DNA of 64,000 bases, taken from IMG/VR virus record IMGVR_UViG_3300027833_000011; one strand, 5' to 3'. The position numbers were made by a program, and so were the translations under genes. Below are positions 4,166-64,000 of the stretch, piece after piece (within the stretch, counting starts at the first letter, position 1; each line of letters begins with the position of its first letter). Below the pieces are notes generated by a model. The model searched no databases. It worked only from the letters and a program-made list of their open reading frames with translations, and had not been told where the DNA came from. The stretch is from a virus (lineage: Duplodnaviria; Caudoviricetes).

Positions 4166-5668
4166 ATGAAGTTATTTTTTACTTTTTACAGTAAAGAAAG
4201 TATTCCTAAATTACACCATTTTTTCAATCACTATAGGAACTTAGGTGTTACCAATTTTTACGCTATATATCACACATATGGAGAACATAGTAAAGATGTT
4301 TTAGATTATGTAATGAAAAATGCTATGGTTGTTAAGATATGGGATGGAGTATTTAATGAGCATAATAAAATTAAACATATAAATGATGCGAGATTAAAAT
4401 TCTCAAGTTATGGAGAATGGTCGTTTACTGTTGATTGTGATGAATTTATCGATATAAGTCTAAACGACTTAAACAAAGTGATTAATAGTGATGCTAACTA
4501 TGTTAAGTTTAGTTTAATCGATAGGGTATCTAAACCATCACTTAAAGAAGTCACTATTGAAGAGGATATAGAAATGACGTTTCCACATTATTCTTTTATT
4601 ACGTATCGTTTATTAGAGGGGACGACATCTAAAGTGCCTCTATCTGTTCGTGAAGTTATTATTGGTTTAGGTTATCATGATGTCATTGGAGAACAAGAGC
4701 AAGTGGTTAAGTTAATAAAACACCCTTTAAATGGGTATGTTAATCACTTTAAATGGGATAGTGATGTTATCTATACTATACACGATAGGGTTACTAATAG
4801 GTTAATAGATGACGGAAGTGCTGATGATTATATAGAAGAATGTGAAGTTGCGTTGTCTTTAGATTATGATAATGTGATTACCTACGACAAACCTTTAGGT
4901 ATGAAGTTATTGTTTATAGTTTGGTCTCTTCAGGATTATAATATGTTAAAACAATTCTTCATACATTATAGAACTTTAGGGGTTACCAAATTTTATTGTA
5001 TTTTTCACACTTACGGTATGGAAGATAATTTTATTTATGATTTCGTTAAAGAAAACGCTGAGATTGTACACCATTGGGATGAGAAATATACTACGGAGTG
5101 GGAATGTAAACTCAAAAATAAATATAAAAGGGAAATATGTGATGATGAGAACGAATGGGTATGGTGTGTTGACGCTGACGAATTTGTTGATGTCTCACAA
5201 GATTTTGTGAGGGAAGTAATACGTAGTGACTCAAATTACGTTAATGGGTGGATGGTAGATAGGTTTTCTGAAGAGGGGTTAATAGTTCCATTGGATGATA
5301 ATATGTTTAAACAGTTCCCTATTAGAACTTACTATACTCGTTTTAAATTAAACGGTTCTGGTTCTAAAATCCCATTAACTCGTTCTTATGTTCTTATTGG
5401 TGTGGGACATCATGTGGTACTAAACGAATTGTACGATTATCAATTAAATGACGATAGAGTCTTAATTCCTTATAATGGTGATGAGGAAACTTGGATTGAA
5501 GTTGCTCATATCAAATGGCATTATCAATTGTTGGAGGAAATATATAATAAATTCACTAAAACAATGAATTTATGTCAATATTCGGCAAGAGAAATGGGAG
5601 TATTTGTCTTAGATTATTGTTATAAGAAAAAATCAATAACTGAGATTATTAAAGATGTGAGGATATGA
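4166..5668 (+). CDS. tandem two-domain GT2/GT92-like glycosyltransferase
   Basis: Two homologous halves, each with HYRxLGVTxFY, VDxDEF, DR and HxKW motifs. Confidence 0.65.
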   Translation: MKLFFTFYSKESIPKLHHFFNHYRNLGVTNFYAIYHTYGEHSKDVLDYVMKNAMVVKIWDGVFNEHNKIKHINDARLKFSSYGEWSFTVDCDEFIDISLNDLNKVINSDANYVKFSLIDRVSKPSLKEVTIEEDIEMTFPHYSFITYRLLEGTTSKVPLSVREVIIGLGYHDVIGEQEQVVKLIKHPLNGYVNHFKWDSDVIYTIHDRVTNRLIDDGSADDYIEECEVALSLDYDNVITYDKPLGMKLLFIVWSLQDYNMLKQFFIHYRTLGVTKFYCIFHTYGMEDNFIYDFVKENAEIVHHWDEKYTTEWECKLKNKYKREICDDENEWVWCVDADEFVDVSQDFVREVIRSDSNYVNGWMVDRFSEEGLIVPLDDNMFKQFPIRTYYTRFKLNGSGSKIPLTRSYVLIGVGHHVVLNELYDYQLNDDRVLIPYNGDEETWIEVAHIKWHYQLLEEIYNKFTKTMNLCQYSAREMGVFVLDYCYKKKSITEIIKDVRI

Positions 5669-10934: not shown

Positions 10935-11624
10935 ATGATACATCCAGAAATTTACAGTTATTTTGATGATAAAGAGGCTTGGAAAAGAAAGTATATGAGA
11001 CCTGAGGCTTTATCAATGGAGTGGGATATGATGTTAGAAGAGGTTGGACCTGATGTCTACCAATTTCCACTATTTAAAGAAGAGTTATGTGCTAAATTAA
11101 TTGAAGAAGCTGAAGCGACACAATCGTGGACACATAAAAGACACGCGTTTTATCCCACTACGGATATGTTGGTCGAGACCTTTGGGTTTGAAGAGATATA
11201 CCATGAGATTATGGATGACTATATTATGGGAGCGGCAAGACACATTTACCAATTAAATGGTCAGAATTGGGACCAAGGAAATGTATATTCCGAGAATTTT
11301 ATGATACGTTATTCACCTGAAGAACAGGGACATTTATCATTACATTATGACCAATCGTCAATATCGTGTAACGTAGCATTAAATAACGACTTTGAGGGTG
11401 GTGGTACGTATTTCTCAAGACATAAGGTATTGGCGAAAGCTAAAGGAACAGGTTATGTTACATTTCATCCTGGACAGATAACACACAAACACGGAGGGAT
11501 GCCGACAAACAAAGGAACCCGATATATTATTGTTTCATTTATGAATGACGATAAAAATAGAGAAAATCACATTAATGATTTAGAAAGATTTGCTAACGAA
11601 AAAGGATTCTATAATGATAAATAA
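10935..11624 (+). CDS. PLOD-type lysyl hydroxylase (2OG-Fe(II) dioxygenase), standalone catalytic domain
   Basis: PDVYQFPLF, PTTDM, NFMIRYSPEEQ, HYD (HxD), NVALN, FEGGG, HPGQITHKHGG, GTRYIIVSF, all collinear with the procollagen-lysine dioxygenase C-terminal domain. Confidence 0.85.
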   Translation: MIHPEIYSYFDDKEAWKRKYMRPEALSMEWDMMLEEVGPDVYQFPLFKEELCAKLIEEAEATQSWTHKRHAFYPTTDMLVETFGFEEIYHEIMDDYIMGAARHIYQLNGQNWDQGNVYSENFMIRYSPEEQGHLSLHYDQSSISCNVALNNDFEGGGTYFSRHKVLAKAKGTGYVTFHPGQITHKHGGMPTNKGTRYIIVSFMNDDKNRENHINDLERFANEKGFYNDK

Positions 11625-12393
11625 GATAGTACATTTCTCAGATTTACATTTAAGATTATATCAATATCATGCTCAATATAAAGAAATATTGACTGATATG
11701 TTACAACAATTTAAAGACGAGGAACCTGACCGTATAGTTTTTACTGGTGATTTAGTACATTCAAAAAATCAGATTACACCTGAACTTATTGATGTGACAA
11801 GGTGGGTGTTAGATGAATGTTCTAAAATTGCGAGGACGGTATTAATAATTGGTAATCATGATTTCTTAGAAAACAATATGGATAGGATGGATTCAATCAG
11901 TCCTATTTTAGATTCTATGAATAATGATAATATTGATTATTATATGGATAAGGGGTTGTATGAAGATGAGAATGTGGTGTGGGTTGTGTATTCGTTAAGG
12001 ACACATAACGAACCACCTGTTATTGATAGAGTTGAGGGTAAGAAACACATTGGATTATTTCACGGACCAGTACATGGGTTAACGACTGACGTTGGTTATG
12101 AATTTTCAGAAGGTTATGACCCGTTTAAATTTAAAGGTTGTGATTTGGTATTGTGTGGTGATATACATAAAAGACAGATATTTGATATTCCTGAAGGTAA
12201 GGCGTATATGGTCGGTTCGACAATACAACAAAACTTTGGAGAGTCAGTTTCAAAACATGGGTATGGTACCTACTATATAGATAAAGATGAATATTCGTTT
12301 ACGGACTTAGATAATAAGTCACCTTTCTTACAATTTAAGATTACGGATATTGAGGACATTGAGAATGGGAAAGAAGTTTTGCTTAACGCTTGA
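11614..12393 (+). CDS. sbcD: Mre11/SbcD (gp47-like) metallophosphoesterase nuclease
   Basis: SDLH, TGDLVH, IGNHD, FHG and GDIH motifs, YMVGS; ATG 11614 preferred to the track start 11590. Confidence 0.85.
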   Translation: MINKIVHFSDLHLRLYQYHAQYKEILTDMLQQFKDEEPDRIVFTGDLVHSKNQITPELIDVTRWVLDECSKIARTVLIIGNHDFLENNMDRMDSISPILDSMNNDNIDYYMDKGLYEDENVVWVVYSLRTHNEPPVIDRVEGKKHIGLFHGPVHGLTTDVGYEFSEGYDPFKFKGCDLVLCGDIHKRQIFDIPEGKAYMVGSTIQQNFGESVSKHGYGTYYIDKDEYSFTDLDNKSPFLQFKITDIEDIENGKEVLLNA

Positions 12394-13252
12394 TAAAAAC
12401 GTTTTAGATTTTTGTAAATTAAATGACATTGAAGATGTTAGGGAATTTGCTATAAAATGTTTTGAAAAGGGTCTGACTATTGAGAAATATGGTGAGACAC
12501 CTTTACTTATGCCCAAAGAAATCAAGACGGTGATTAAAGAAATTGAAAAAGAAGTAATCAAAGAAGTTGAAGTACCTGTTGAGGTCATTAAAGAGGTTAA
12601 AGTAGAGGTTCCCGTTGAGAAAATAGTGGAAAAAATTGTTGAAAAACCTATTGAAGTGATAAAGGAAGTCATTAAAGAGGTACCAGTCGACAAAATAGTG
12701 GAAGTGGAGAAAGAGGTCGTTGTCTATAAAGAAAGACCCGTAGAAATCATAAAAGAGGTTGAGAAGATAGTTGAAAAAGAAGTCCCAATAGAGAAAATTA
12801 AGGAAATCGAAGTAATTAAAGAGGTCTATATAACGGATGACAAGCAGGTTGAGGAACTTGGTGATAAAATAACACAGTTAGAGAAACAAAATAAGGATTT
12901 GTCCCAAAAAGTGATTAAATTAGAGACAACTCCCCCTAAAATTGTGGAAAAAGAAATACCGATTGAGAAAATTAAGATAGTTGATAGGGAAGTCCCTGTT
13001 GAAATCATCAAAGAGGTTGAGAAAATAGTAGAAAAACCTATTGAAGTGATAAAGGAAGTCATTAAAGAGGTAAAAGTAGAGGTTCCTGTTGAAAAAATCG
13101 TCAAGATTAAGGATAACTCTGAAATAGAAAAATTGACTAAACATAATAAAGAATTAATTGAGTCATTAGCTAAATATGACGAAATGTTTAGTAAATTTGA
13201 ACAGAAAATAAGCGTTAAAAAATCAAAAAGAGATAATTTATATGATGAGTAG
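12350..13252 (+). CDS. EKIVEVPV-repeat (alveolin/articulin-like) low-complexity protein
   Basis: Many IKEVEVPVEKIVE repeats flanking a short coiled coil; probable start ATG 12365. Confidence 0.7.
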   Translation: MRTLRMGKKFCLTLDKNVLDFCKLNDIEDVREFAIKCFEKGLTIEKYGETPLLMPKEIKTVIKEIEKEVIKEVEVPVEVIKEVKVEVPVEKIVEKIVEKPIEVIKEVIKEVPVDKIVEVEKEVVVYKERPVEIIKEVEKIVEKEVPIEKIKEIEVIKEVYITDDKQVEELGDKITQLEKQNKDLSQKVIKLETTPPKIVEKEIPIEKIKIVDREVPVEIIKEVEKIVEKPIEVIKEVIKEVKVEVPVEKIVKIKDNSEIEKLTKHNKELIESLAKYDEMFSKFEQKISVKKSKRDNLYDE

Positions 13253-22469: not shown

Positions 22470-23144
22470 ATGGATTATAGAGATATTAACGACTTTGGTC
22501 GTTTTGCTAAAGATAAGGGGATTTCAGGAATGAATCTTCACTACTTCAACCAAAAAGTAGAAAATTCAATGACACCTTACATTTTAGAGGAGAGAAGTCT
22601 TAACGTAACACAAATGGATGTGTTTTCAAGATTAATGATGGACAGAATCTTATGGGTTTCGGGACCTGTAAATGACCAAATGGCGTCTATTGTACAAGCA
22701 CAATTACTATTCTTAGATAACCTTGACGATAGAGATATTTCAATGTATATCGATTCACCAGGTGGTTCTGTTAAAGCGGGACTTTCAATGGTTGATGTTA
22801 TGGACTATGTGAATAGTGATATTGCTACCGTTAATGCAGGAATGGCGGCATCGATGGGTTCTGTACTGTTAGGTGCAGGAACCAAAGGTAAAAGGTCTTC
22901 ATTAAGATTCTCACAAACAATGTTACACCAATCATCAGGTGGTGCGGTAGGTAACATTCAAGATGCTGAGATTTCTATGATTGAATGGAGAAAAGTAAAC
23001 CAACAGTTATTTGAATTGTTAGGGGGTTACTGTGAAAAAGACGCAGAACAAGTTAAGAAAGATGCGACTCGTGATTTCTGGTTAAGTGCTGACGAAGCGA
23101 AAGACTACGGAATTATTGATGAAGTTATTCGTAAACGAAGATAA
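22470..23144 (+). CDS. clpP: ATP-dependent Clp protease proteolytic subunit
   Basis: DVFSRLMMDRI, YIDSPGGSV, AASMGS (Ser), MLHQ (His), RDFWL (Asp). Confidence 0.95.
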   Translation: MDYRDINDFGRFAKDKGISGMNLHYFNQKVENSMTPYILEERSLNVTQMDVFSRLMMDRILWVSGPVNDQMASIVQAQLLFLDNLDDRDISMYIDSPGGSVKAGLSMVDVMDYVNSDIATVNAGMAASMGSVLLGAGTKGKRSSLRFSQTMLHQSSGGAVGNIQDAEISMIEWRKVNQQLFELLGGYCEKDAEQVKKDATRDFWLSADEAKDYGIIDEVIRKRR

Positions 23145-24423: not shown

Positions 24424-25215
24424 ATGGCTAAATACACATCACACATCAACCAAGACGAGATATCACATTATCTTAAAGAGTTAAGAAAGATTCCTGTTAT
24501 CACACCTGCTAGAGAAAAGGAACTGTCTAAAATTATGTTAAATCCGAATGTAACCCAAAGAGAGACTGATAAGGTACATAAAGAATTGTTGGAGGGTAAC
24601 TTAAGATTTGTTATAACAGTGGCTAAAGACTACCAAGGTCAAGGTATTGATTTATCTGACTTGATATCTGAAGGTAATTTAGGTCTTATGAAGGCGATTA
24701 AGTCATTTGATTGGAGTAGAGGTTTAAGATTTATATCATACGCGGTATGGTGGGTTAAACAATCAATCTTCCAATGTCTAAATGAAAATTCAAGGACTAT
24801 TAGGTTACCTGTTAATGTTGTACAAGAAGTACAAAAGGCAAAAAAACAAGATAAACGTGTGGAGGATTTAAATCCACGTCTTAGTAATTTAGCACACGCA
24901 ATCACCTTCGATGACCATATTAATGAGGAGGGTGACACTATGTTCGATTTATTAGAAGATGTTGAAGCGGTAATGCCAGATTCAGCTTTGGACGGTAAAG
25001 ATATAGTTAAAAGACAACTCCTTACTATTATGGATGTCTTAGACGAACGTGAAAATGCTATAGTTAAAGATTACTTCGGAATCACTGGTACTCCAAGGAC
25101 TTTAGAAGACATTGGTAATGATTTCGGACTTACAAAAGAAAGGGTCAGACAAATTAAAGAAAAGGCGTTACGTAAGTTACGTAATGAGTCAGACGCAATA
25201 TTTGACTACTTATAA
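24424..25215 (+). CDS. RNA polymerase sigma70-family factor (RpoD/RpoS-like, no region 1.1)
   Basis: YLKEL, NLRFVITVAK, DLISEGNLGLMKA..FD..RG.RF.SYAVWW, HTH TLEDIG..FGLTKERVRQI. Confidence 0.92.
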   Translation: MAKYTSHINQDEISHYLKELRKIPVITPAREKELSKIMLNPNVTQRETDKVHKELLEGNLRFVITVAKDYQGQGIDLSDLISEGNLGLMKAIKSFDWSRGLRFISYAVWWVKQSIFQCLNENSRTIRLPVNVVQEVQKAKKQDKRVEDLNPRLSNLAHAITFDDHINEEGDTMFDLLEDVEAVMPDSALDGKDIVKRQLLTIMDVLDERENAIVKDYFGITGTPRTLEDIGNDFGLTKERVRQIKEKALRKLRNESDAIFDYL

Positions 25216-36298: not shown

Positions 36299-37747
36299 AT
36301 GAATTTTGAAAAATTAATCAGAGAAATGATTTTGGAAGATGCTCGTTTAGAGCACCTACTAAAAACACATGCTCACAAGGATATAGTGAAAGTTAATAAG
36401 GAGACAGGAAAGAGAAAAGTCAAAAAGGCTCCTCTTACTTCAGACCAAATGATGATTATGGTTGGTAACGACCCAACATCAAGAATTGATGGTTTAGACT
36501 TAACACAACTACACGATGATGAAACATTAAAGAATATTTCTCCTGATTCTGTTAAAAAAACGGGTGAATACACTCAATGGATGGTTAAACAGTATAAGAT
36601 GTTACCACAGATGACTGAGATTCCTTATGGTGAATCGGGGTATGATTCAGAATTATCAGAAAAACAAAGATTATTTTTTGAGGATTTATATAAAACTAAA
36701 GAAGACTTAATAAAGTTTCACAGGTTTAAAACTACGGATAAGATTGAAGAGGCTGATATTAACAAATATACGATTCGAGAGTTAGAGACACTTGTCGCTC
36801 CATTATCTTTGGAGTTAGCTACGAGTACTAAGGCTGAGAGAAAATCGTCTATGTTACATCCAGGTGCTGAATTTATGGTGGAAACAGATAAATGGTATGT
36901 GGTTAAAATACATCGTAATGATGAGTTAGGAAAAGAAGCTGCCGTGTTCTACGGAGGGTCACAAAAACGTCCATCAGAAGGGGAAACTAGTTGGTGTACA
37001 TCGGCTCCTGGTATGAATTACTACTTTAACTACTTAAAAACAGGTCCTTACTACGTTTTTTTAGATAAAACAGACACTAAAACGGGTAATGTTTCAGGAT
37101 TACCAACACATAGATACCAATTCCATTTTGAGTCTAATCAGTTTATGGATGTTAATGATAGACAGATTGACTTAGTTAAATTCTTTAATGATAATCCTTC
37201 TTTAAAAGATGAGTTTAAAACGGTTATTACGTCACACTTCAGTAAAGCAAAAGGTAAGAGTTCTTCAAAAACTGTTGAGGTAAGTTACCCTTCAGATGGA
37301 ATATCTAAGTTAATTGGATTGTATGGGTTTGATGATTTCTTCGAGGGTTTACCGTCTGATTTAGAAAGTTTTGAATTTGAGTATTCAAACTCAGGGTATG
37401 GAAGTAATAAAGATGTTCAACCACCTAAATTAGCAATACCTGATAGTATTGGTAGGTTTACAAGTCTAAAAGTATTGTTCTTCGATAACTGTATTGTGTC
37501 AATACCTGAAAGTATTTCTAAAATACCTTTAACTATCCTTTCAATACCAAACAACAAAGGTGTTAAATTACCTGATTCGTTGGCTGACATGATTAACAAC
37601 GGTACTTTAAATATTTTAGGTTTATCAGGTTCTGGATATACAATGGAGACATTACCACCAAAAATTGTTGAAGCGATTAAGAAAAGAGAAAGTGAAAGCG
37701 ATACTAACCCAAGCGAAGAGACTGCGTTCTTAGTGATATTAGATTAG
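36299..37747 (+). CDS. phage protein with a C-terminal leucine-rich repeat region
   Basis: TSWCTSAPG...YQFHFESNQFMD domain, then IPDSIGRFTSLKVL / IPESISKIPLTIL / LPDSL LRR units. Confidence 0.7.
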   Translation: MNFEKLIREMILEDARLEHLLKTHAHKDIVKVNKETGKRKVKKAPLTSDQMMIMVGNDPTSRIDGLDLTQLHDDETLKNISPDSVKKTGEYTQWMVKQYKMLPQMTEIPYGESGYDSELSEKQRLFFEDLYKTKEDLIKFHRFKTTDKIEEADINKYTIRELETLVAPLSLELATSTKAERKSSMLHPGAEFMVETDKWYVVKIHRNDELGKEAAVFYGGSQKRPSEGETSWCTSAPGMNYYFNYLKTGPYYVFLDKTDTKTGNVSGLPTHRYQFHFESNQFMDVNDRQIDLVKFFNDNPSLKDEFKTVITSHFSKAKGKSSSKTVEVSYPSDGISKLIGLYGFDDFFEGLPSDLESFEFEYSNSGYGSNKDVQPPKLAIPDSIGRFTSLKVLFFDNCIVSIPESISKIPLTILSIPNNKGVKLPDSLADMINNGTLNILGLSGSGYTMETLPPKIVEAIKKRESESDTNPSEETAFLVILD

Positions 37748-37751
37748 TAGT

Positions 37752-38024
37752 TTGATGGATAATGAGGTTATTATTTACGTTAAAAACTTAAAAAAGTATT
37801 TAGTTAATTCCGCTAAGGCGAGAGAATTATTTCTCAGTAACGCCATTGACATTGATGACTTTATAAATGAGGTTGTTAAAGTGGCGAGAAACAATGTTAA
37901 GAAAGGTAAAGACCCACAACTCACACAAAAACAGTACGAAGAAGTACGTTTCAAACTCACAGACAAAGAATCCGACATTCCTATGATAGAGATAAAAGGG
38001 TTCCCTCCATTTTTTTTAAATTAG
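37752..38024 (+). CDS. hypothetical protein
   Basis: 90 aa ORF. Confidence 0.55.
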   Translation: MMDNEVIIYVKNLKKYLVNSAKARELFLSNAIDIDDFINEVVKVARNNVKKGKDPQLTQKQYEEVRFKLTDKESDIPMIEIKGFPPFFLN

Positions 38025-38069: not shown

Positions 38070-39476
38070 ATGAAAAACAGGTTAACTTTAGTGACGGTTG
38101 CGACTCATAAGACGCATGAGTTAGATAGGTTTATCGAATCCGCTAAATATCACGGATATGACTATGTTATATTAGGATTAGGGATGGAATGGACTGGTGG
38201 TGTTGCCGACAATGGTCGATTAGTATTTCCCGGTGGAGGAATGAAAGTGAATCTTCTAAAGAATTATCTATCCACATATAAGGGGTCGAATAGCGATGTA
38301 ATACTTTTTACAGACTCCTACGATGTTGTATTCAACGAAAAACCCGATGAGTTATTAAGTAGATGGGACGGCAATGTATTATTTACCGCAGAAAAAACTT
38401 GTTGGCCTGACAGGGATTTGGAAGAAGAATATCCAAATTCACCTTACGGTTATAAATATTTAAATAGTGGTGGTTTTATTGCGACAGTTGGTGACCTAAT
38501 TAATCTAACGGAAACTAAGTGTATGGACCACGACGATGACCAATTATATTATACACTAAAGTTTTTAAATGGTGACAAGATTAATTTGGACTATAATTTA
38601 GACATATTTCAAACTCTTAATCAGTCTATTGATGATGTTGAAATACATGACGGTAGAGTTTATAATAAAGTGACTAAAACGTATCCTATAGTTATTCATG
38701 CTAATGGAGGTGTTGGCCCAAGGACTTATTTAAACAAATTTTATAACGATATGAGACAACCAGAGCCTACATTAAAAAGATTAAACGGTAATGAAAGAGT
38801 GTGTTTACAAATGATATTTGATAAGAAACATACAAATCCGTCAATTATGGTTGAAAGTCTTTCCTACTTAACCTATGATAAAAGATTAATTGATTTATCG
38901 TTTTATAATAATAACAAAGAAAATCAATGGGCTATTGAGAACTACATTAAAAATAATGAAGACAAATATAACTCAATCACACAGGTTTATGACGATAGTA
39001 AAGGGGTTTATGAGTTAAGAGAAATCTTATTTAAAAACGCCACACAATATGATGGGGATTATGTGTTACATAATGACTCGTCGTTTATTATGAAAAATAA
39101 AGATATCATTCAATTATTAATGTCAGAAGGTAAGGATATTATCTCACCAATGATTAATACTGAACAAACGTTTAACTCTAACTTTTGGGGTGGTGTTTCA
39201 GATGATGGGTATTATTTAGAGAGTTACGATTACCACGATATTAGAACGTACAATAAAAAAGGAACTTTTGTTGTTCCATTTATTAGTGGGGTGATGATGT
39301 TTAGTAGTGAAATATTAAAAACTGATTTATTTGTTACGATGTTTAATAATTTAGAAAAAGAAATTCTTAATTATTATGGTGAAGACTACATGGTTGTATT
39401 GGCAAATACTATCAGAGACAAGAATTTGTTTATGTATGTAACCAATAAAAGATATTATGGAAAATTTTTTAATTAA
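38070..39476 (+). CDS. PLOD-type glycosyltransferase plus accessory domain (no hydroxylase domain)
   Basis: VTVAT, F..SA, LGLG..W.GG, GGGMKV.LLK, LFTDSYDV, FTAEK.CWPD, YLNSGGFI, DDDQLYYT, H.NG; accessory IISPMI, SNFWGG...DGYY..S.DY, VPFIS. Confidence 0.88.
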   Translation: MKNRLTLVTVATHKTHELDRFIESAKYHGYDYVILGLGMEWTGGVADNGRLVFPGGGMKVNLLKNYLSTYKGSNSDVILFTDSYDVVFNEKPDELLSRWDGNVLFTAEKTCWPDRDLEEEYPNSPYGYKYLNSGGFIATVGDLINLTETKCMDHDDDQLYYTLKFLNGDKINLDYNLDIFQTLNQSIDDVEIHDGRVYNKVTKTYPIVIHANGGVGPRTYLNKFYNDMRQPEPTLKRLNGNERVCLQMIFDKKHTNPSIMVESLSYLTYDKRLIDLSFYNNNKENQWAIENYIKNNEDKYNSITQVYDDSKGVYELREILFKNATQYDGDYVLHNDSSFIMKNKDIIQLLMSEGKDIISPMINTEQTFNSNFWGGVSDDGYYLESYDYHDIRTYNKKGTFVVPFISGVMMFSSEILKTDLFVTMFNNLEKEILNYYGEDYMVVLANTIRDKNLFMYVTNKRYYGKFFN

Positions 39477-53901: not shown

Positions 53902-56900
53902 ATGGCATTAAGACAATTAGGATTATTCCAACTTAATACGAACCCAGGAACACAAGAAATTGATTTAGGTACTACCGCTAATTTTCTTGATGAAATATTC
54001 GTTGATTCCATATCCGCAAACACTTATTTAGGTGACGGGTCTGGACTTACAATCGACGGTATTGATTCATTAGTCGATAGTCTTTCAATTGAAACTTCTG
54101 CAAGAACAGGAGCTGACACATCGTTAGCTACAAAAATTTCTACAGACGTTCAATCGGCAATCGACAACTTAGTAGATGGTGCACCAAGTGCGTTAGATAC
54201 TTTAGTTGAGTTAGCATCCAAAATCGGTGAAGGTTCCATTAGTGAAGCAAACATCGTAGCTGAGATTAACTCAGTAGGTGTACGTGTAACTAATGAAGCG
54301 GCAACAAGATTGTCAGCGGATGGTTCGTTGGCGACTTTGATTGGACAAGTTTCAACGGGTGCGTCTTCAAACTTAGCGTCTGAGATTCTACAAACTGGTA
54401 ATGAAGTAAATTCATTAACGACTAGAATTTCAACAGAAGAATCTGTTAGAGACACACAGGTAACATCATTAGCCAATGAGATTACAGGTGAGGTTACTGC
54501 TGATATTACTTCGGTTGATACAAGAATCACAGGAGTTGAGGGAGATTTAACTTCAGTAGAGACAAGATTGTCAACTGAAGAGTCTACTATGGTGGTAACT
54601 GTAAATAGTTTAGGTACCGTAGTCGACGGAGACATATCGTCTGTAGTAACTAAGATAGGGGATGAAGAATCTTCTAGAATAGGGGCTGATAATTCATTAG
54701 CAACGTTAATATCTACGGAAGTAGTTAATAGAGAGAGTGAAGATAACGTATTAGACGGTAAAATAACCACAGAGGCATCATCAAGAGGTGTTGCTGATAA
54801 TTCTTTAGGAGATAGAATTGACACCTTAGAAGATAATCCATATGACGATTCATCAATCAACACAAGAGTTGGTGGTGTTGAATCAAGTGCGAGTTCTTTA
54901 GGAGCAAGAATTTCATCTGAAGAGGTAGTTAGATTATCTAAGGATAATTCTATTGCGACAATTGCGGGACAAAATACTTCAAGTATTAATACGGCATCGA
55001 CATCATTAACGTCTAGAATTTCTACTGAAGAAATTGCAAGAACTACGGGTGTAAATTCTGTAAATGATAAAGTAGGTGTTGAGGCTTCAAGTAGAGTTGT
55101 AAAGGATGATTCATTAGACGCTAAAATAGATTCGGAAATATCAACACTTAAATTAGATGTTGTACAGAATGAATCAGACATTAGTGGTGAAGAGACAATA
55201 AGAATTCAGAAAGATAACTCATTAGATAGTAAAATATCTACTGAAGTTGTTACTTTAGAGGCTAAAGACACATCTTTAGCAACTAGAATAGGTGTTGAAG
55301 AAGGTGCAAGAGCATCGTCTGACTCAGCATTAAGTAATGAGATTTCGGTTCAAGCATCGATGAGACAATCAGCGGATACGGCAATTTCAAGTCAATTAAT
55401 ATCAGATATTTCTGTATTAGTTGATGCTGATGATAATTTATCATCTGACATTGTTGCTGAAGAGTCTTTAAGATATGCGGCGGATGATTCATTAACAACT
55501 AGAGTTAGTAGTGTTGAATCGGAAGTTTCATCAAATAAAGCGTCTACAGACACTAGAGTGTTAACAGTTGAAGGTCAAATAGGTGGTATCGATGTTGATA
55601 TTACAGGTTTAACTTCAGGAGTTAATAGTTTAGATAGTAAAATTGATTCAGAAATATCTTCTGAGGTAGTTGCAAGAAATTCAGCAATCGTTGTCGCTAA
55701 AGACGAAATCATTAACGGTGCTGGTGACGCTTACAATACGTTAAGTGAGTTACAAACTGCGTTAGAAGATAACGACGGTGATATAACAACTATATTAACG
55801 GCACAAGGTTCTATTAATACTAGAATAACAACTGAAGAGTCTACTAGACTTTTAAAAGATAGTATTTTAGAGTCTGAAATTGATAATAAAACTAATTCGT
55901 TAGAAACTAGAATCAGTACATTAACATCTAAAGATGTTGTAATTGATTCAGATATAACGTCTGAAGTATCTTCAAGAGTGTCAGGAGATTTATCACTTAA
56001 CAATAGAATATCAAGTGAAGAATCGGCTAGAGAATCTGCAGTTACTGCGATTAATGAAGCTGCTTACGATGATTCATCAATCAACACAAGAGTTGGTGGT
56101 GTTGAATCAGACTTATCTTCTGAAATTAGTTCAGAGGCGTCATCAAGAGTATTAGGTGACAATTCATTAAATACTAAGATTGGTTCAGTATCTACGGCAT
56201 TGGCGTCAGAGATAGGAACAACAAACGGTGAAATCACATCATTAAACACAAGAGTTTCTAACGAAGAAGATAATTCTACGACATTAGAGAATTCTTTAGT
56301 GGGTGTTGATACATCATTACATAGTAGAATTTCTTCTGAAGAGGTTACTAGGAGTTTAGCAGTAAGTTCATTACATGTTAAATCGGGTAACATCACGGGA
56401 GATGTGACTTCTATAGCAAATAGAATACAATCTGAAGAGTCTACAAGACTATCAAGTGATAACATATTAACAGGTTCAGTTGGTTCAATCAATACGAGAG
56501 TTGCAACTGAAGAAGGTAAGTCGACATCATTAACAACGAGAGTTAGTAATGTAGAAAGTGATTTAACTTCAGAAGTTAATTCGGTTGACACAAGAATTGA
56601 TAATATTGAGGCGGCTGCTTACGATGATTCATCTATCAATACAAGAATTGGTGGTGTTGAATCAGACTTAACAACGGCTGAAGGTTCTTTAGAAACAAAA
56701 ATAACTGCAGAGGAGAGTTCAAGAGTATTAGGTGATTCATCACTTACTACTGTAATTAGTACTCTACAATCGGACTTAAATACTGAAATTGCATCTACAA
56801 ATACGGAGATGACATCTTTAGATACGAGATTATCTACGATTGAATTGGATGACGAAACTGTTGAGTCTTCATTAGAAACTAAAATTGGTGGAGTATCTGC

Positions 56901-59900
56901 TGATTTAGCGACTGAGGTTGGAGTAAGAGGTACGGCTGACACTTCATTAACGAATAGAATTGCTAGTGAAGAAACAAACAGAGTTTCTGCGGATTCATCT
57001 TTAGCTCTTTTAATCGGGGGTAACGCATCTGACATTAGTTCACTTAACGAATTATCGGGAGTGTCAATAACAGGTGACGTATTAAAAGTATCAGGTTCAA
57101 ATCAAGCGTTTACTGTTGATTTATCACAGTTTAACGATAATACAGACAATTACATAACAGGAGCGGCACTTTCAGGTGATGTATTAACATTATCAAGAGT
57201 ATCAGGTTCTGTAACGGTAGATTTAGGTCAATATCAAACCTCATCAGAGGTGGCATCACAAATAACAACGGCAATCACAGGTTACGCTACTGAGAATTAT
57301 GTTGATAGTGCAATAGCACCATTAGCAGTAAAAACGGTAGTATCTGCGGCTGACGCTTCATTAAACACTAAGATAGATTCTTTAGACTCAAGTTTAGATT
57401 CAGAGATTTCATCTAGAATTGAAAGTGAGGATTATGTTATCGGTGCTGCGATGTCTAATGACACATTAAAATTAACAAGAGCGAAAGGTGGTGTAGTATC
57501 AGTAGACCTGTCACAATTTATAGATGACACTGACACAGATAACTATATTACAGGAGCTGCGATATCAGGTGATATACTAACATTAAGTAGACAAAACGGA
57601 GACGTTACGGTTAACTTAGGTCAGTATCAAACTTCTTCAGAAGTTGCATCACAGATAGCAACAGGTCTTGTAGGTTACGCTACTGAATCATATGTTGGTT
57701 CGGCAGTTTCACCTAAAGCTAATAAAACATATGTTGATTCACAAGACGCGTCATTAGCGACTAGAATAGATTCAATTGATACGACAATCGCATCACACAA
57801 TGAATTAGACGGAACAAGTTTCGTAGCTAACATACTTACAGTTTCAGGTTCTGAGGCTGACTACTCAGTAGATTTAAGTTCATTAGCAACAGACGTAAAT
57901 GTTTCTTCAGGTTCATACAATTCAACAACAGGTACGTTAACATTAACGAAATCTGACGGTGGAACTGTTGCGGTAAGTAACTTCTATGTAGATGTAAACG
58001 GAGATAACTTTATCACGGGAGCAAGTGTAGTAGGTCAAAACTTAATCTTATCAAGACAAGGGTTAACGGATATTACGGTATCTTTAGCTGGTTTTGTAAC
58101 ATCAGGTGAATTAACAACGGCAATTTCAGACTTCAAGTCAAGTTCAGCAATCGCAACTGATATATCATCAGCGGTGGCTACTGAATCAGGAATCAGAAGT
58201 TCGGCTGACAACTCATTAGCAGTTGCCATATCAGCGGTACAATCAGATTTCGATTCAATACCTGAAGATGAAAATGATTATATTTCATCAGCGGCAATTG
58301 TAAGTAACAATTTAGTTATTACAAGAACTGACGGTGGGACAGTAACAGTTAGTTTAGCACAATTTATGGATGACACTAATACGGATAACTTCGTAACAGG
58401 TGCGTCTTTATCGGGTGATACATTAACATTAACGAGAGACTCAGGTAACTCTATTACAGTTAACTTAGGTCAATATCAAACTTCTTCGGAAGTAGGTGGA
58501 CAAATAACATCAGCATTGGCGGGTTACGCTACTGAGAGTTATGTTGGTAGTGCAATTGCACCATTAGCGGTAGCATCGGCAGTATCTACGGCTGATTCAT
58601 CATTGAACACTAAGATAGACTCTTTAGAATCAAGTTTAAATTCTGAGGTCTCGTCAAGAATAGCAACCGAAGATTATTTAGTCGGAGCTACAATGTCTAA
58701 CGACACATTAAAATTAACAAGAAACTTAGGTGGTATTGTAACAGTTGACTTAGGTCAATTTAAAGACAATACTGACAACTTCCTAACAGGAGCTTCTTTA
58801 TCGGGTGATTTACTTACTCTAACAAGAAACTCAGGTGGTTCATTATCTGTTAACTTAGGACAATATCAAACATCGTCTGAAGTGGCATCACAGATAACCT
58901 CAGCAATTGCTAATTACGCTACTACATCATATGTTAATACTGCTGATACTTCATTGGCAAGTAAAATAACATCTGTAGACACAAGATTCGGTGGCTTACC
59001 ATCTGAAGATTATGTAACAGGAGCGGTTATGTCTAACGACACATTAAAATTAACAAGAGCACAAGGTGGTGTTGTATCAGTAGACTTAAGTAGATATACT
59101 ACGGCTTCTGAATTAACATCGGCTTTATCTCCATACGCAACCTCAGCGGTTACTTCTACACAGATTTCATCAGGAATCCAAACAGAAACAAACAGAGCGG
59201 TTGGTAAAGAGAACTCATTACATACAAGGATTGGTCAAGTATCAACGGCTTTAGGAACTGAGATTGGAACAACAAATAGTGAAGTTACTTCATTACATAC
59301 GAGAGTTGGTTCAGTATCAACGGTAGCGTCGACAAATACTACGAACATTGGTTCAGTATCAGCACTAACAGGTTCATTAAGTTCAGATATCTCTACATTA
59401 GAGGCGTCTGGTTACGATGACTCATCTTTAGCAACAAGAATCTCAACAGAAGAGTCGACAAGGTTAGTTAAAGATAATTCATTAAACACTAAAGTTGGTT
59501 CAGTATCTACGGCAATAGCTAACGAGATAAATTCAACTAATGGTGATATCACATCATTAAACACGAGAGTGGGTAATGAAGAAAGTACGAGAAGTACTAA
59601 AGACAGTTCATTAACAACTGCCTTATCTGCGGAAACCGCAGCAAGGATAGCTGGTGATGGTAGTTTAGGTACACGTATTGATGGTATAAATGAATTAGAC
59701 GGGTTAGTATTCTCATCTAACGTTTTAACGGTAGGTGGTTCTGAAAGTGACTTCTCTGTAGATTTAGGAGTATTAGCTTCTGATGTAACAGTTACAGGTG
59801 GTACATATAATTCAGGAACACAAACATTAAACTTAACGAAGAGTAATAATGATACTATCGCAATCTCAGGATTTGCTATTGACACTGACACTGATAACTT

Positions 59901-60723
59901 TGCTGATTCAGTATCATTCAATTCGACTAATGGTGTATTAACCATTGGTAGAACAGGGACGTTATCTGACATATCAGTTGATTTAGATGGTAGATACTTA
60001 GTAGATACTGTAGACAACAACAACTATGTAGATGGTGCGAGTTTCAATACGACTAACGGTGTCTTAACAATAGGAAGGTCAGGTTCTTTATCTGATATTA
60101 ATATTGATTTAGACGGAAGATTTACAGATAATGGTTACGCAGACGCAATGAACCAACATGTAAAAACTAACTCAGCGGTAACGTTCAGTACGGTTAATAC
60201 AGGTCAGGGAGCGACTGAAGTACATTTAATGAATCAAAATGTTAGAACATCTGACACGGTAACATTCAATCAAGTTAACGCTAGTATTGGTGATATCGAT
60301 GAAATCAGAATTGATACTACAACGTTAACAAGTTCATTAGGTGTCTTATCTATAAACACTGATGTGGAAATCACGGGAGAGTTAAGAGCAACAAGTAAGT
60401 CGTTCTTAATCGACCATCCTACTCAACCTAACATGAAGTTACAATATGGTAACTTAGAGGGACCTGAGCATGGAGTCTACATTAGAGGTAAAGTAGGTGC
60501 TGACGGTATGATTGAATTACCAGAATATTGGACTGAGTTAGTACATGAAGATTCTATAACAGTACAGTTAACTGCTATTGGAGCACCAACAACACACTAT
60601 GTTAAGTCTATTGAAGACAACAAAGTAGAAGTTGGTTCTGAAAGTGGTATAGTAAATGCTTTCTACACGATAAACGCTGAGAGAAAGGATGTTTATAAAT
60701 TAAGAGTTGAATTTCCAGCTTAA
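53902..60723 (+). CDS. giant tail fibre (2273 aa)
   Basis: 18-residue coiled-coil repeats, DNYITGA.LSG..LTL.R...VDL repeats, C-terminal SKSFLIDHP..EGPE.GVY.RG...AERKD domain. Confidence 0.85.
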   Translation: MALRQLGLFQLNTNPGTQEIDLGTTANFLDEIFVDSISANTYLGDGSGLTIDGIDSLVDSLSIETSARTGADTSLATKISTDVQSAIDNLVDGAPSALDTLVELASKIGEGSISEANIVAEINSVGVRVTNEAATRLSADGSLATLIGQVSTGASSNLASEILQTGNEVNSLTTRISTEESVRDTQVTSLANEITGEVTADITSVDTRITGVEGDLTSVETRLSTEESTMVVTVNSLGTVVDGDISSVVTKIGDEESSRIGADNSLATLISTEVVNRESEDNVLDGKITTEASSRGVADNSLGDRIDTLEDNPYDDSSINTRVGGVESSASSLGARISSEEVVRLSKDNSIATIAGQNTSSINTASTSLTSRISTEEIARTTGVNSVNDKVGVEASSRVVKDDSLDAKIDSEISTLKLDVVQNESDISGEETIRIQKDNSLDSKISTEVVTLEAKDTSLATRIGVEEGARASSDSALSNEISVQASMRQSADTAISSQLISDISVLVDADDNLSSDIVAEESLRYAADDSLTTRVSSVESEVSSNKASTDTRVLTVEGQIGGIDVDITGLTSGVNSLDSKIDSEISSEVVARNSAIVVAKDEIINGAGDAYNTLSELQTALEDNDGDITTILTAQGSINTRITTEESTRLLKDSILESEIDNKTNSLETRISTLTSKDVVIDSDITSEVSSRVSGDLSLNNRISSEESARESAVTAINEAAYDDSSINTRVGGVESDLSSEISSEASSRVLGDNSLNTKIGSVSTALASEIGTTNGEITSLNTRVSNEEDNSTTLENSLVGVDTSLHSRISSEEVTRSLAVSSLHVKSGNITGDVTSIANRIQSEESTRLSSDNILTGSVGSINTRVATEEGKSTSLTTRVSNVESDLTSEVNSVDTRIDNIEAAAYDDSSINTRIGGVESDLTTAEGSLETKITAEESSRVLGDSSLTTVISTLQSDLNTEIASTNTEMTSLDTRLSTIELDDETVESSLETKIGGVSADLATEVGVRGTADTSLTNRIASEETNRVSADSSLALLIGGNASDISSLNELSGVSITGDVLKVSGSNQAFTVDLSQFNDNTDNYITGAALSGDVLTLSRVSGSVTVDLGQYQTSSEVASQITTAITGYATENYVDSAIAPLAVKTVVSAADASLNTKIDSLDSSLDSEISSRIESEDYVIGAAMSNDTLKLTRAKGGVVSVDLSQFIDDTDTDNYITGAAISGDILTLSRQNGDVTVNLGQYQTSSEVASQIATGLVGYATESYVGSAVSPKANKTYVDSQDASLATRIDSIDTTIASHNELDGTSFVANILTVSGSEADYSVDLSSLATDVNVSSGSYNSTTGTLTLTKSDGGTVAVSNFYVDVNGDNFITGASVVGQNLILSRQGLTDITVSLAGFVTSGELTTAISDFKSSSAIATDISSAVATESGIRSSADNSLAVAISAVQSDFDSIPEDENDYISSAAIVSNNLVITRTDGGTVTVSLAQFMDDTNTDNFVTGASLSGDTLTLTRDSGNSITVNLGQYQTSSEVGGQITSALAGYATESYVGSAIAPLAVASAVSTADSSLNTKIDSLESSLNSEVSSRIATEDYLVGATMSNDTLKLTRNLGGIVTVDLGQFKDNTDNFLTGASLSGDLLTLTRNSGGSLSVNLGQYQTSSEVASQITSAIANYATTSYVNTADTSLASKITSVDTRFGGLPSEDYVTGAVMSNDTLKLTRAQGGVVSVDLSRYTTASELTSALSPYATSAVTSTQISSGIQTETNRAVGKENSLHTRIGQVSTALGTEIGTTNSEVTSLHTRVGSVSTVASTNTTNIGSVSALTGSLSSDISTLEASGYDDSSLATRISTEESTRLVKDNSLNTKVGSVSTAIANEINSTNGDITSLNTRVGNEESTRSTKDSSLTTALSAETAARIAGDGSLGTRIDGINELDGLVFSSNVLTVGGSESDFSVDLGVLASDVTVTGGTYNSGTQTLNLTKSNNDTIAISGFAIDTDTDNFADSVSFNSTNGVLTIGRTGTLSDISVDLDGRYLVDTVDNNNYVDGASFNTTNGVLTIGRSGSLSDINIDLDGRFTDNGYADAMNQHVKTNSAVTFSTVNTGQGATEVHLMNQNVRTSDTVTFNQVNASIGDIDEIRIDTTTLTSSLGVLSINTDVEITGELRATSKSFLIDHPTQPNMKLQYGNLEGPEHGVYIRGKVGADGMIELPEYWTELVHEDSITVQLTAIGAPTTHYVKSIEDNKVEVGSESGIVNAFYTINAERKDVYKLRVEFPA
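56994..59100 (+). repeat. internal modular duplications within the giant fibre
   Basis: Blocks such as GQYQTSSEVASQI..GYATE.YV and EDY..GA.MSNDTLKLTR recur three to four times; aatgacacattaaaattaacaaga-like DNA near 57456, 58698 and 59037. Confidence 0.8.
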
Positions 60724-60771: not shown

Positions 60772-63588
60772 ATGGCTAAGAACATAATTATCACACCGAA
60801 TTTAACAGGGACAGATAATCCAAACATAGCTATCACCAATGGAAATGAAGAGATTGTCATCGGCTTAAACGCCGGTGGCTCTCTTATCTTCCAAGATGGT
60901 GGTGGAGCTACGTTATTGGAACTGGACTCTAATGGTAACGCCACAGTAAAGAACCAAAACCTTAAAACTAATCAGTTTACAGTAAACTCACAAGACGCTT
61001 TCGACGAGTCCCTTTATGTAGGTCCATCAGGACACTTAAAAGGACAGAAAGGTATCAAAGGAAACATAGGACCCACCGGAGCTCAAGGAGCGAAAGGAGT
61101 AATTGGGGCAAAAGGTTTGAAAGGATACATTGGTTCCGTAGGGGTGGTAGGTGCCCAAGGTGCTCAGGGTACTCAAGGACAAGTAGGTGCAACTGCACCA
61201 CAAGGTCCAAAAGGCCCAATAGGAAATGCAGGTCCAATAGGACCCGTAGGACCAAAAGGAGGACAAGGTACTCAAGGACCTAAAGGTTACGTAGGTAATC
61301 AAGGGAGTAAAGGAGTAACAGGACCTAAAGGTCTAAAAGGAGGAGTAGGTCTACAAGGACCAAAAGGTGCTTCACCTCAAGGACCACAAGGACCGCAAGG
61401 ACCTCAAGGACCACAAGGACCGCAAGGACCTAAAGGTTATAAAGGGATAAAAGGTGCGACAGGGAATGTCGGACCAACAGGTTATAAAGGTATCGCGGGT
61501 ACTAAAGGTAACGAAGGACCCATAGGGGACAGAGGAGCCACAGGACTTAAAGGATACAAAGGTATTACAGGACCTAAGGGTCAGACGGGTAATAAAGGAC
61601 CCAAAGGTAATGCCGGTGACCAAGGACCTACTGCATCGAAAGGTGTGTTAGGTAATAAAGGTACTAAAGGTAATAAAGGTGTCATTGGCTCGAAAGGGTA
61701 TAAGGGCAACAGAGGAACTCAAGGACCAAAAGGATATGAACCGAAAGGACCGAAAGGATACCAAGGACCGAAAGGATACAAAGGTATCAAAGGAAATAAA
61801 GGTATTAAAGGTATTACAGGACCAGGTGGACCGAGAGGTATACAAGGTGGTGGTGGTGACTTAGGACCTACGGGAACTGCAGGTATCAACGGACCAAAAG
61901 GACCAAGAGGTGTTCAAGGACCTGTCGGTACTCAAGGACCAAAAGGTTATAAGGGTGTCAAAGGTATCAAAGGACCTCAGGGTACAAAAGGACCTCAGGG
62001 AGACCAAGGAGGACCAGGTGCTAAAGGTGTTATTGGAGGCCAAGGTAATAAAGGTATAAAAGGTAACGCAGGACCAAAAGGTTATATTGGTTCTTCTATT
62101 AAAGGTAATAGAGGAGGACAAGGACCAACAGGTTATAAAGGTATCAAAGGTAATAAAGGTGTTAAGGGTATCAAAGGAAACTTTGGACCACAAGGACCTA
62201 CAGGACTAAAAGGAAACCAAGGAGGACAAGGTGCTAAAGGATATGCTGGAGCTACAGGAACTAAAGGTAACCGAGGTGGTACTGGAGGTTCTGGAGACAA
62301 AGGTGTTACAGGACCAGGTGGACCAACAGGTGGAAAAGGTATTAAAGGTAACATAGGTGGCCAAGGAGCAAGAGGTAATACAGGAGCCCAAGGTTATCAA
62401 GGAGCAAGAGGTACTACAGGACTTAAAGGAAATAAAGGTATTAAAGGTTATCAAGGACCAGGTGGACCAACAGGTGGTAAAGGTATTAAAGGTAATATCG
62501 GACCAGGTGGACCAACAGGGCCAGGAGGTGATAGAGGACCAGGAGGTGATACAGGTGGTAAAGGTTACAGAGGTGACCAAGGACCTGTAGGACAGAAAGG
62601 TTATAAAGGAGCACCAGGTGGTAAAGGTATCAAAGGTAACATAGGTGGTCAAGGAGCGAGAGGTCCACAAGGAGGACAAGGGTCTCAAGGACCACGAGGT
62701 GGAACAGGACCAAAAGGACCTAAAGGTTACAAAGGTAATGCTGGTAACAAAGGTTATCAAGGTGCTAAAGGTATCAAAGGTAATAAAGGAACTAAGGGTT
62801 ATACAGGTACTCAAGGGTTGAGTGGTGACAAAGGTTATATAGGTGGACCAGGAGGACAAGGACCAGCTGGAGGTAATAATACGACTAAAGGTGGTAGAGG
62901 AGCTACAGGTTCTTCTCCAAAAGGTTATATTGGAGCACAAGGTAACAAAGGTGTTAAAGGTTTTATAGGTAATCAAGGACCGGGAGGTGACATATATTTG
63001 GTATCAAATTTCCCTGATGCACCAAGTGGACCAACAGGTGATAGAGGACCTACAGGTTCTAATGGTACATCTAAAGGACCAAAAGGATATGCAGGACCTT
63101 TAGGTGCTAAAGGTAATCAAGGACCAAAAGGACCAACGACTTTCGGAAGCAAAGGTAAGAGAGGTGCAAAAGGTACTGGAGGACCAAAAGGACCTACAGG
63201 TTATAAAGGTATTAGAGGGCCGAATGGTTATAAAGGACCAAAAGGACCTACAGGAAATACATCTGATGCAAGATTGAAAGAAAACATTAAAGAGTTAACA
63301 GGTGGTATTGAAAAAATATCAAAACTTAGAGGTGTTAAATTTGATTGGGTAGAAGGTTCTATACATAATGTACACGAAGTTAAAGGTAGAGATGCTGGTT
63401 TTATCGCTCAAGAAGTTAATGAGGTTTTACCTGAGTTGACTAATATAATGAATGAAGAGAATGGTACGATGCAAGTTAACTACGCTAAGATGACTTCAGT
63501 ATTAATTTCAGCGCTGAGAGAACAGAGGGAAATCGTTAAAGAATATACTGATAAACTTGAAATAATTAAATTAAATCGTTCGAAATAA
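60772..63588 (+). CDS. Lys-rich collagen-like fibre with a C-terminal Peptidase_S74 intramolecular chaperone
   Basis: About 240 Gly-X-Y triplets (approx. 61040-63258) with short interruptions; SDARLKENI...GFIAQEV..VNY S74 motifs. Confidence 0.92.
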   Translation: MAKNIIITPNLTGTDNPNIAITNGNEEIVIGLNAGGSLIFQDGGGATLLELDSNGNATVKNQNLKTNQFTVNSQDAFDESLYVGPSGHLKGQKGIKGNIGPTGAQGAKGVIGAKGLKGYIGSVGVVGAQGAQGTQGQVGATAPQGPKGPIGNAGPIGPVGPKGGQGTQGPKGYVGNQGSKGVTGPKGLKGGVGLQGPKGASPQGPQGPQGPQGPQGPQGPKGYKGIKGATGNVGPTGYKGIAGTKGNEGPIGDRGATGLKGYKGITGPKGQTGNKGPKGNAGDQGPTASKGVLGNKGTKGNKGVIGSKGYKGNRGTQGPKGYEPKGPKGYQGPKGYKGIKGNKGIKGITGPGGPRGIQGGGGDLGPTGTAGINGPKGPRGVQGPVGTQGPKGYKGVKGIKGPQGTKGPQGDQGGPGAKGVIGGQGNKGIKGNAGPKGYIGSSIKGNRGGQGPTGYKGIKGNKGVKGIKGNFGPQGPTGLKGNQGGQGAKGYAGATGTKGNRGGTGGSGDKGVTGPGGPTGGKGIKGNIGGQGARGNTGAQGYQGARGTTGLKGNKGIKGYQGPGGPTGGKGIKGNIGPGGPTGPGGDRGPGGDTGGKGYRGDQGPVGQKGYKGAPGGKGIKGNIGGQGARGPQGGQGSQGPRGGTGPKGPKGYKGNAGNKGYQGAKGIKGNKGTKGYTGTQGLSGDKGYIGGPGGQGPAGGNNTTKGGRGATGSSPKGYIGAQGNKGVKGFIGNQGPGGDIYLVSNFPDAPSGPTGDRGPTGSNGTSKGPKGYAGPLGAKGNQGPKGPTTFGSKGKRGAKGTGGPKGPTGYKGIRGPNGYKGPKGPTGNTSDARLKENIKELTGGIEKISKLRGVKFDWVEGSIHNVHEVKGRDAGFIAQEVNEVLPELTNIMNEENGTMQVNYAKMTSVLISALREQREIVKEYTDKLEIIKLNRSK

Positions 63589-64000
63589 TGGCACTACAAA
63601 AAGGAAACAAAGGGATACATATATTCCCAAATAGAGTAGGTACGAATGAACCTAAAATAGAACTTTATCAAGGTTCTACTACGTATACACTAGAGGTAGA
63701 AGACAATACTAATGATGTTGTTATATTCTTAAATGGTACAGAGGTTGCTCGTATGAAATCATCAGGTGATGAAAGATTTCAAATTGTTGGAGACCTAATA
63801 ATTGACGGAGATTTAAGAGACTCAAGTGGTAACGTAATCGTAACTCAATCAGGTATATACAACGGAACATTTCAAGGTACTACAGGTGACAGAGGACCTC
63901 AGGGACCTCAAGGTAACCAAGGACCTAAGGGAATAAAAGGACCAAAAGGTAACTTTGGACCTACAGGTCAGAAAGGACTTAAAGGTATTGCTGGTAATAA
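63588..64000 (+). CDS. second collagen-like protein (partial, runs off the window)
   Basis: TAATG coupling; MALQKGNKGIHIFPN... then GTTGDRGPQGPQGNQGPKGIKGPKGNFGPTGQKGLKGIAGN. Confidence 0.85.
   Translation, partial: MALQKGNKGIHIFPNRVGTNEPKIELYQGSTTYTLEVEDNTNDVVIFLNGTEVARMKSSGDERFQIVGDLIIDGDLRDSSGNVIVTQSGIYNGTFQGTTGDRGPQGPQGNQGPKGIKGPKGNFGPTGQKGLKGIAGN

Follow-up and report, generated by a model that had tools for sequence, protein, structure and literature searches.

The 64,000-nucleotide stretch of DNA analysed here (virus record IMGVR_UViG_3300027833_000011, hereafter the window) carries three separate genes whose products resemble the enzymes that hydroxylate and glycosylate collagen lysines. 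In our reading, the window comes from a large uncultured marine tailed phage in which the pathway of collagen-lysine modification is unfused, each of the three enzymes being autonomous, and the split between them is the normal, long-inherited state and not a recent break of a PLOD gene (probability about 0.72). The features concerned are the following:

10935..11624, + strand: ORF B, predicted standalone collagen-type lysyl hydroxylase (LH module), an Fe2+/2-oxoglutarate dioxygenase of 229 aa
21124..21864, + strand: standalone GT25 (COLGALT-like) glycosyltransferase of 246 aa (PF01755), candidate hydroxylysine glycosyltransferase
38070..39476, + strand: ORF A, the GT-AC protein of 468 aa (PF25342 plus a second GT-A-like domain)
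38070..38774, + strand: GT_PLOD catalytic glycosyltransferase domain of the 468-aa protein, residues 1-235 (PF25342, invariant motifs)
38775..39476, + strand: AC (accessory) GT-A-like domain of the 468-aa protein, residues ~236-468 (alignment with the LH3 AC domain)
60772..63588, + strand: collagen-like tail fibre of 938 aa with a C-terminal intramolecular chaperone, proposed substrate
63588..63998, + strand: start of a second collagen-like fibre gene that runs off the window, with Gly-X-Y repeats including Gly-X-Lys

We infer which substrates the enzymes act on, which sugars they add and in what order. The standalone LH would hydroxylate the Y-position lysines of Gly-X-Lys triplets in collagen-like fibre chains that have not yet folded. 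The standalone GT25 would then put a first hexose on hydroxylysine, and the GT-AC protein would put on the second, giving fibres with a hydroxylysine-linked disaccharide. LH, GT25 and GT_PLOD (with or without AC) are modules with constant ends that viruses and cells bear either singly or in many fused combinations.

The window is AT-rich (31-41% GC), with nearly all genes on one strand in a phage-like arrangement. Its genes include a primase-like gene, a Mre11/Rad50-like pair (Metallophos and a 780-aa SbcC-like protein), ClpP, DnaJ, a Dam methylase and a cell-wall amidase. A search of the window for tRNA genes was negative, and most of the neighbouring genes had no PHROGs match. The nearest match in a cultured phage, a Microcystis phage, showed about 24% identity; a megablast of 25 kb of the window against cultured phages gave no match, and a pattern-based search of viral contigs retrieved no relatives. 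The 938-aa fibre matched Collagen (PF01391, 5.8e-73) and Peptidase_S74 in Pfam, as well as tail-fibre PHROGs. Lysine occupies the Y position in 85 of its ~233 Gly-X-Y triplets, so that the X-Lys-Gly acceptor motif is present. The two collagen-like fibres encoded at 60772 and 63588 are likely substrates of the enzymes. Note that the enzyme genes lie 22-50 kb from the fibre genes, so that this assignment of substrates is based on co-occurrence in one genome, not on adjacency.

The GT-AC gene was analysed against Pfam and PDB sequences. GT_PLOD (PF25342) matched residues 2-226 of the 468-aa protein (1.5e-64). Residues 4-466 aligned with chain residues 15-492 of human LH3 (E 1e-55), and residues 8-464 aligned end to end with residues 18-455 of mimivirus R699 (9dyt; E 4e-51). 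Animal PLODs share about 33-35% identity with the window protein over GT-AC. In an alignment with relatives and animal PLODs, W41, D82-S-Y-D85 (DxxD), W112, D156-D157-Q158 and H210 of the GT domain were invariant, and these residues line up with the LH3 motifs. The GT_PLOD feature set of DxxD, UDP-binding Trp, gating Trp, poly-Asp loop and His is present, and the catalytic residues are intact. The AC domain also aligned to ColGalT1 residues ~102-260 (E 5e-15). In LH3 this domain is non-catalytic and lacks a conserved DxD (PMC6082870). A conserved DxD at the GT-A metal site was also absent from the AC domain in our alignment of relatives, and the phage AC domain is probably non-catalytic, as in LH3. 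No LH dioxygenase domain is present on the GT-AC polypeptide, whose ORF stops at 39476. The protein thus has the architecture of R699: GT plus AC in ~460 aa, no LH, and conserved DxxD and Trp. Standalone GT-AC proteins of about 465-480 aa form a large family (300 matches at E<1e-10, on contigs of up to several hundred kb), all ending 3-8 residues past a conserved N-x-x-Y-[FY]-G motif.

For the 229-aa protein, residues 2-204 aligned with LH3 chain residues 503-714 (E 4e-34), and a further match was obtained with the isolated LH domain of mimivirus L230 (6ax6; E 2e-27; PDB sequences in both cases). Pfam assigned OGFOD2-like and 2OG-FeII_Oxy domains. H137, D139, H186 and R196 were invariant in the alignment with relatives and animal PLODs, and the protein has the HxD...H iron triad, the 2OG-binding Arg and N-terminal helices before an LH-type DSBH; its catalytic residues are intact. 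No domain precedes the LH module in the 229-aa ORF, which therefore is not an L230-type GT25-LH fusion. Standalone LHs, like standalone GT-AC proteins, form a large metagenomic family, and the module start motif HPE[LI]Y is common to all standalone LHs, GT25-LH fusions and PLODs. An exhaustive search for LH relatives returned 2465 proteins, which by local classification and Pfam included standalone, GT25-LH, X-GT25-LH (L230-like), GT25-GT-LH, GT-AC-LH (PLOD) and GT25-GT-AC-LH architectures; on the GT side, GT25-GT-AC fusions and methyltransferase-inserted GT-AC proteins were found in addition. Outside its own clade, the best relatives of the window LH were GT25-LH fusions (46-51% identity, 200-223 bits). 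In comparison, PLOD-type LHs scored about 115-122 bits, and the LH domains of animal PLODs were 30-34% identical. By score, the window LH is thus nearer to L230-like GT25-LH fusions than to PLODs.

The third enzyme gene is a separate ORF 10 kb downstream of the LH gene. Its 246-aa product matched PF01755 with 37.1 bits (Pfam cut-off 24), and its best PDB match was the catalytic domain of human procollagen galactosyltransferase 1 (residues 375-522, E 7e-7). The acidic metal-binding motif IIEDD of the window protein lined up with VFEDD of COLGALT1. The protein also matched the GT25 domains of GT25-LH fusions, with E values from 1e-20 to 2e-39.

A preliminary description of this DNA had covered the GT-AC and LH genes and read them as a PLOD split exactly at the domain boundary, without gap or overlap. 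Both ORFs are as described there. The 468-aa protein ends ...NLFMYVTNKRYYGKFFN and is aligned through the end of the LH3 AC domain (chain residue 492), and the 229-aa protein begins MIHPEIYSYFDDKEAWKRKY, with the alignment to the LH region of LH3 starting from its residue 2. The two genes, which lie on the same strand with their starts 27,135 nt apart, thus encode homologous proteins that complement each other, one corresponding to the GT-AC part of PLOD and the other to its LH part (E 1e-55 and E 4e-34, respectively). As judged from these alignments, the complementary cover of LH3 by the two products is far beyond chance. The two products do not overlap on LH3, and only ~10 LH3 linker residues (493-502) are unmatched, compared with 3 unaligned terminal residues in the phage proteins. 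The GT-AC protein does end at the AC/LH boundary, but this boundary is common to whole families, in which GT-AC ends and LH starts recur at the same places; its exactness is a family property. The preliminary description had overlooked a known active standalone GT-AC protein, mimivirus R699 (PMC9546862, PMC12279948), given which the split as such is not surprising.

The arrangement of the loci was compared with that in related genomes. In a relative with a contig of 117,761 bp, LH, GT25 and GT-AC occur in the same order, with 25.4 kb from LH to GT-AC compared with 27.1 kb in the window. More distant freshwater relatives (46% identity for LH, 33% for GT-AC) keep the neighbours of each gene. The LH gene sits between the primase-like and Metallophos genes in the window and in the relatives, the GT25 gene follows the 780-aa SbcC-like gene in a position that is kept in relatives, and GT-AC is placed after genes for ~470-aa and ~90-aa proteins in the freshwater relatives. 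The separate loci and the order of LH, GT25 and GT-AC are thus kept in relatives down to 33-46% identity. Within one pair of genomes, LH shows 80% identity (neighbours 76-87%) and GT-AC 55% (neighbours 43-63%). Divergence of the enzymes like that of their own neighbours points to vertical inheritance in place. This indicates that the separate loci are an old, stable state, vertically inherited where they stand.

In the relatives, down to 33% identity, the GT-AC gene is always preceded by genes for an LRR_14-matching protein (482 aa here) and a ~90-aa protein (36299..38024 in the window). A DUF932 gene and a gene for a PcfJ-like protein come after it in the marine relatives.

The closest characterised counterpart of the phage GT-AC protein is R699, which by itself is an active collagen glucosyltransferase and glucosylates galactosyl-hydroxylysine as a cooperative antiparallel homodimer (PMC9546862, PMC12279948). 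Both are standalone GT plus AC proteins without LH (458 aa for R699, 468 aa here), and both conserve the DxxD and the UDP-binding Trp (PMC9546862). They differ in origin: R699 comes from a giant virus of amoebae, whereas the window protein is encoded in a tailed bacteriophage and belongs to a phage clade of its own. Human LH3/PLOD3 (PDB 6fxk, 6teu) is homologous to the phage halves in all three domains, with conserved catalytic residues. However, LH3 is one polypeptide that resides in the ER, whereas the phage proteins are products of two genes 27 kb apart, both outside the fused clades, and would act in the cytoplasm of a bacterial host. L230 (GT25-like plus LH) and metagenomic GT25-LH fusions share a homologous LH module with the window, and the window GT25 matches their GT25 domains; the two modules are fused in L230 but are separate genes 10 kb apart here. 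L230 adds glucose, not galactose, as cited in PMC9546862. Human COLGALT1/GLT25D1 (PDB 9evj, 8zgc) corresponds to the window GT25 in its catalytic domain, including the EDD motif, although the match is weak. Its N-terminal domain resembles the AC domain of the 468-aa protein. In contrast to COLGALT1, the phage GT25 is a single-domain protein.

Fused versions of the same modules are present in cultured phages, where GT25, GT_PLOD and LH form a single protein annotated 'hypothetical protein':

S-CAM9, L010:2365-4206: GT25 + GT_PLOD + LH fusion gene (N161109_031)
S-PRM1, L012:1362-3206: GT25 + GT_PLOD + LH fusion gene
Roseobacter phage CRP-6, L011:2473-4242: GT25 + GT_PLOD + LH fusion gene (gp58)

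These are tailed marine phages with the same three catalytic modules as the window, and they also encode tail fibres; that of CRP-6 is collagen-like, with 99 Gly-X-Y triplets. In contrast to the window proteins, the fusions (589-614 aa) have no AC domain and lie beside tail-fibre genes, and they are only 27-35% identical to the window domains. Two more small 2OG oxygenase genes precede the fusion gene in S-CAM9 and S-PRM1.

Separate GT and LH phylogenies were built from proteins that are mostly metagenomic; R699 and L230 are known here as PDB matches only and are not in the trees. Both halves fell outside the fused PLOD clades, although the backbones are without resolution. In careful GT-AC trees, the window protein was placed in a 25-row phage clade (support 99/98) together with syntenic relatives and two GT25-GT-AC fusions, with animal PLODs as a separate clade. 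The AC-linked (PLOD-type) LH domains formed a 22-row clade (99/92) that excludes the window LH. With the two halves placed in this way, the trees exclude that a captured crown PLOD (e.g. an animal one) underwent fission, and the simple fission of a PLOD that the preliminary description had suggested is not supported, given the two clades and the synteny of the loci. A more ancient event, with capture of a fused GT-AC-LH gene by a phage ancestor, a break at the AC/LH linker and later separation of the pieces, we consider very unlikely. The abutting ends of GT-AC and LH at the linker would fit such an event, as would the free GT-AC trees, in which LH-fused forms are non-monophyletic and the phage clade lies among them. 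However, a tree that unites all LH-fused GT-AC rows and leaves the phage clade outside them was not rejected (p-AU 0.25), and the exclusion of the window LH from the PLOD-type clade argues against this history as well. Moreover, the two genes occupy different conserved neighbourhoods throughout the lineage, the same ends recur in hundreds of standalone proteins and GT25-LH fusions, and no relative or intermediate with adjacent GT-AC and LH halves was present in any locus examined. The same p-AU of 0.25 is consistent with the opposite history, also raised in the preliminary description as a pre-fusion state, in which the phage GT-AC and LH would be the closest surviving relatives of the genes fused into PLOD and eukaryotic PLOD would have originated from a virus-like unfused pair. 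The LH tree, too, is compatible with one fused clade that leaves the phage halves outside: constraining the window LH clade to group with PLOD-type LHs gained 2.4 lnL over the free tree (p-AU 0.55; careful search, 79 rows). Note that an apparent AU rejection of this grouping in quick searches (dlnL 402, with three misassigned rows; dlnL 181, p 0.0002) was a product of poorly optimised constrained searches. The GT-domain tree puts the phage clade together with non-metazoan GT-AC-LH forms, with weak support (90 SH-aLRT). But failure to reject is not support, and the LH scores place the window protein nearer to GT25-LH fusions. With the syntenic freshwater LH clade added, the constrained tree was 19 lnL worse (p 0.15). 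Moreover, when AC-less phage GT25-GT-LH forms served to root the GT domain, the result was a polytomy from which the direction of fusion or fission is not readable. P0080 and P0098 (about 300 aa, 'GT only') resemble truncated GT-AC proteins and did not serve as outgroups. We regard the pre-fusion history as unlikely, and it is doubtful that this widespread lineage of large aquatic phages preserves the unfused GT-AC, LH and GT25 state from which the PLOD fusion arose. If it did, the animal toolkit for collagen lysine modification would trace to modules first diversified on viral or bacterial collagen-like fibres.

Two further alternatives to three autonomous fibre-modifying enzymes concern function. 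The two halves might reassemble in trans, as the preliminary description had proposed, into a PLOD-like GT-AC:LH complex needed for activity. The two short helices at the start of LH lie between AC and LH in LH3 (PMC6082870), and the window LH keeps this segment; in addition, human LH3 and COLGALT1 were solved in one complex (PDB 8zgc). However, the N-terminal helices are also found in GT25-LH fusions and in all standalone LHs and hence are not AC-specific. R699 is active alone as a homodimer (PMC12279948), and the LH domain of L230 was crystallised by itself, as a homodimer according to the description in PMC9546862 (PDB 6ax6). Since homologues of each half act alone, reassembly is not needed, and the proposal gained no support here. 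The identities of 80% for LH and 55% for GT-AC between the same genomes are also unlike those of a tightly co-evolving pair. A complex prediction for the AC domain (residues 230-468) with LH scored 0.00, which counts neither way. We consider an obligatory complex improbable. Alternatively, the enzymes could have targets other than the fibres, such as proteins or glycans of the host surface or free metabolites. Such targets would be consistent with the distance between the enzyme and fibre genes in the window, with the annotation of GT25 in bacteria as an LPS-biosynthesis family, and with the production of kojibiose from glucose by R699 (PMC12279948). Against this, the window, a freshwater relative and CRP-6 each combine the enzymes with collagen fibres rich in Gly-X-Lys, the fused phage versions lie directly beside tail-fibre genes, and the characterised homologues all act on collagen lysines (PMC9546862, PMC6082870). 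Non-fibre targets therefore seem highly improbable to us.

To our knowledge, the hydroxylation of collagen lysines and their subsequent Gal-Glc glycosylation are considered chemistry of animals, mimivirus being the only viral example. A literature search found no published description of PLOD-type enzymes or of the collagen-lysine pathway in bacteriophages. The novelty lies in the complete lack of fusion and in the occurrence of an R699-like, AC-bearing GT in a tailed phage. The pathway would be present in its most dissected form, its three small enzymes each having a gene of their own in a bacterial virus that also encodes Lys-rich collagen fibres. The proteins are predicted to be compact, single-activity enzymes, probably expressible in bacteria, for the production of modified recombinant collagen. 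The arrangement is also a natural test case for the functional importance of the AC domain and of fusion to LH, and it adds unfused lineages for reconstructing the assembly of PLOD.

Several metagenomic proteins combine the GT modules in other ways. In one GT-AC family (P0024, P0030, P0057, P0100 and similar, about 692 aa), a SAM-methyltransferase is inserted in the middle of GT_PLOD, giving the layout GT 15-198, methyltransferase ~224-318, GT 386-459 and AC 470-692. Others (P0062, P0094 and similar, about 721 aa; P0032 and P0076, 718 aa) join GT25 to GT-AC and thus have two glycosyltransferases but lack LH. Two GT25-GT-AC fusions are nested within the phage standalone GT-AC clade, and fusion of modules has thus occurred within the phage lineage.

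Finally, we noted other coding features in the window and its relatives. In a freshwater relative, a collagen-like ORF of >1031 aa in which G-L-K and G-P-K triplets predominate lies 7.6 kb downstream of GT-AC (L004:19062-21434). Directly upstream of the collagen-like fibre genes of the window is an ORF of 2273 aa (53902..60723) with no Pfam match and no Gly-X-Y runs. The ClpP protease of the window is encoded at 22470..23144 and a 263-aa protein at 24424..25215; an 82%-identical homologue of the latter in relatives matches Sigma70 regions 2 and 4. A 500-aa protein with a Glyco_tranf_2_4 domain is encoded at 4166..5668, amid unannotated genes. The 300-aa protein at 12350..13252 consists mostly of (E/K)-(V/I)-x-K-E-(V/I) repeats (EVIKEVEVPVE...), and a long antisense ORF over the same interval is probably a repeat artefact.
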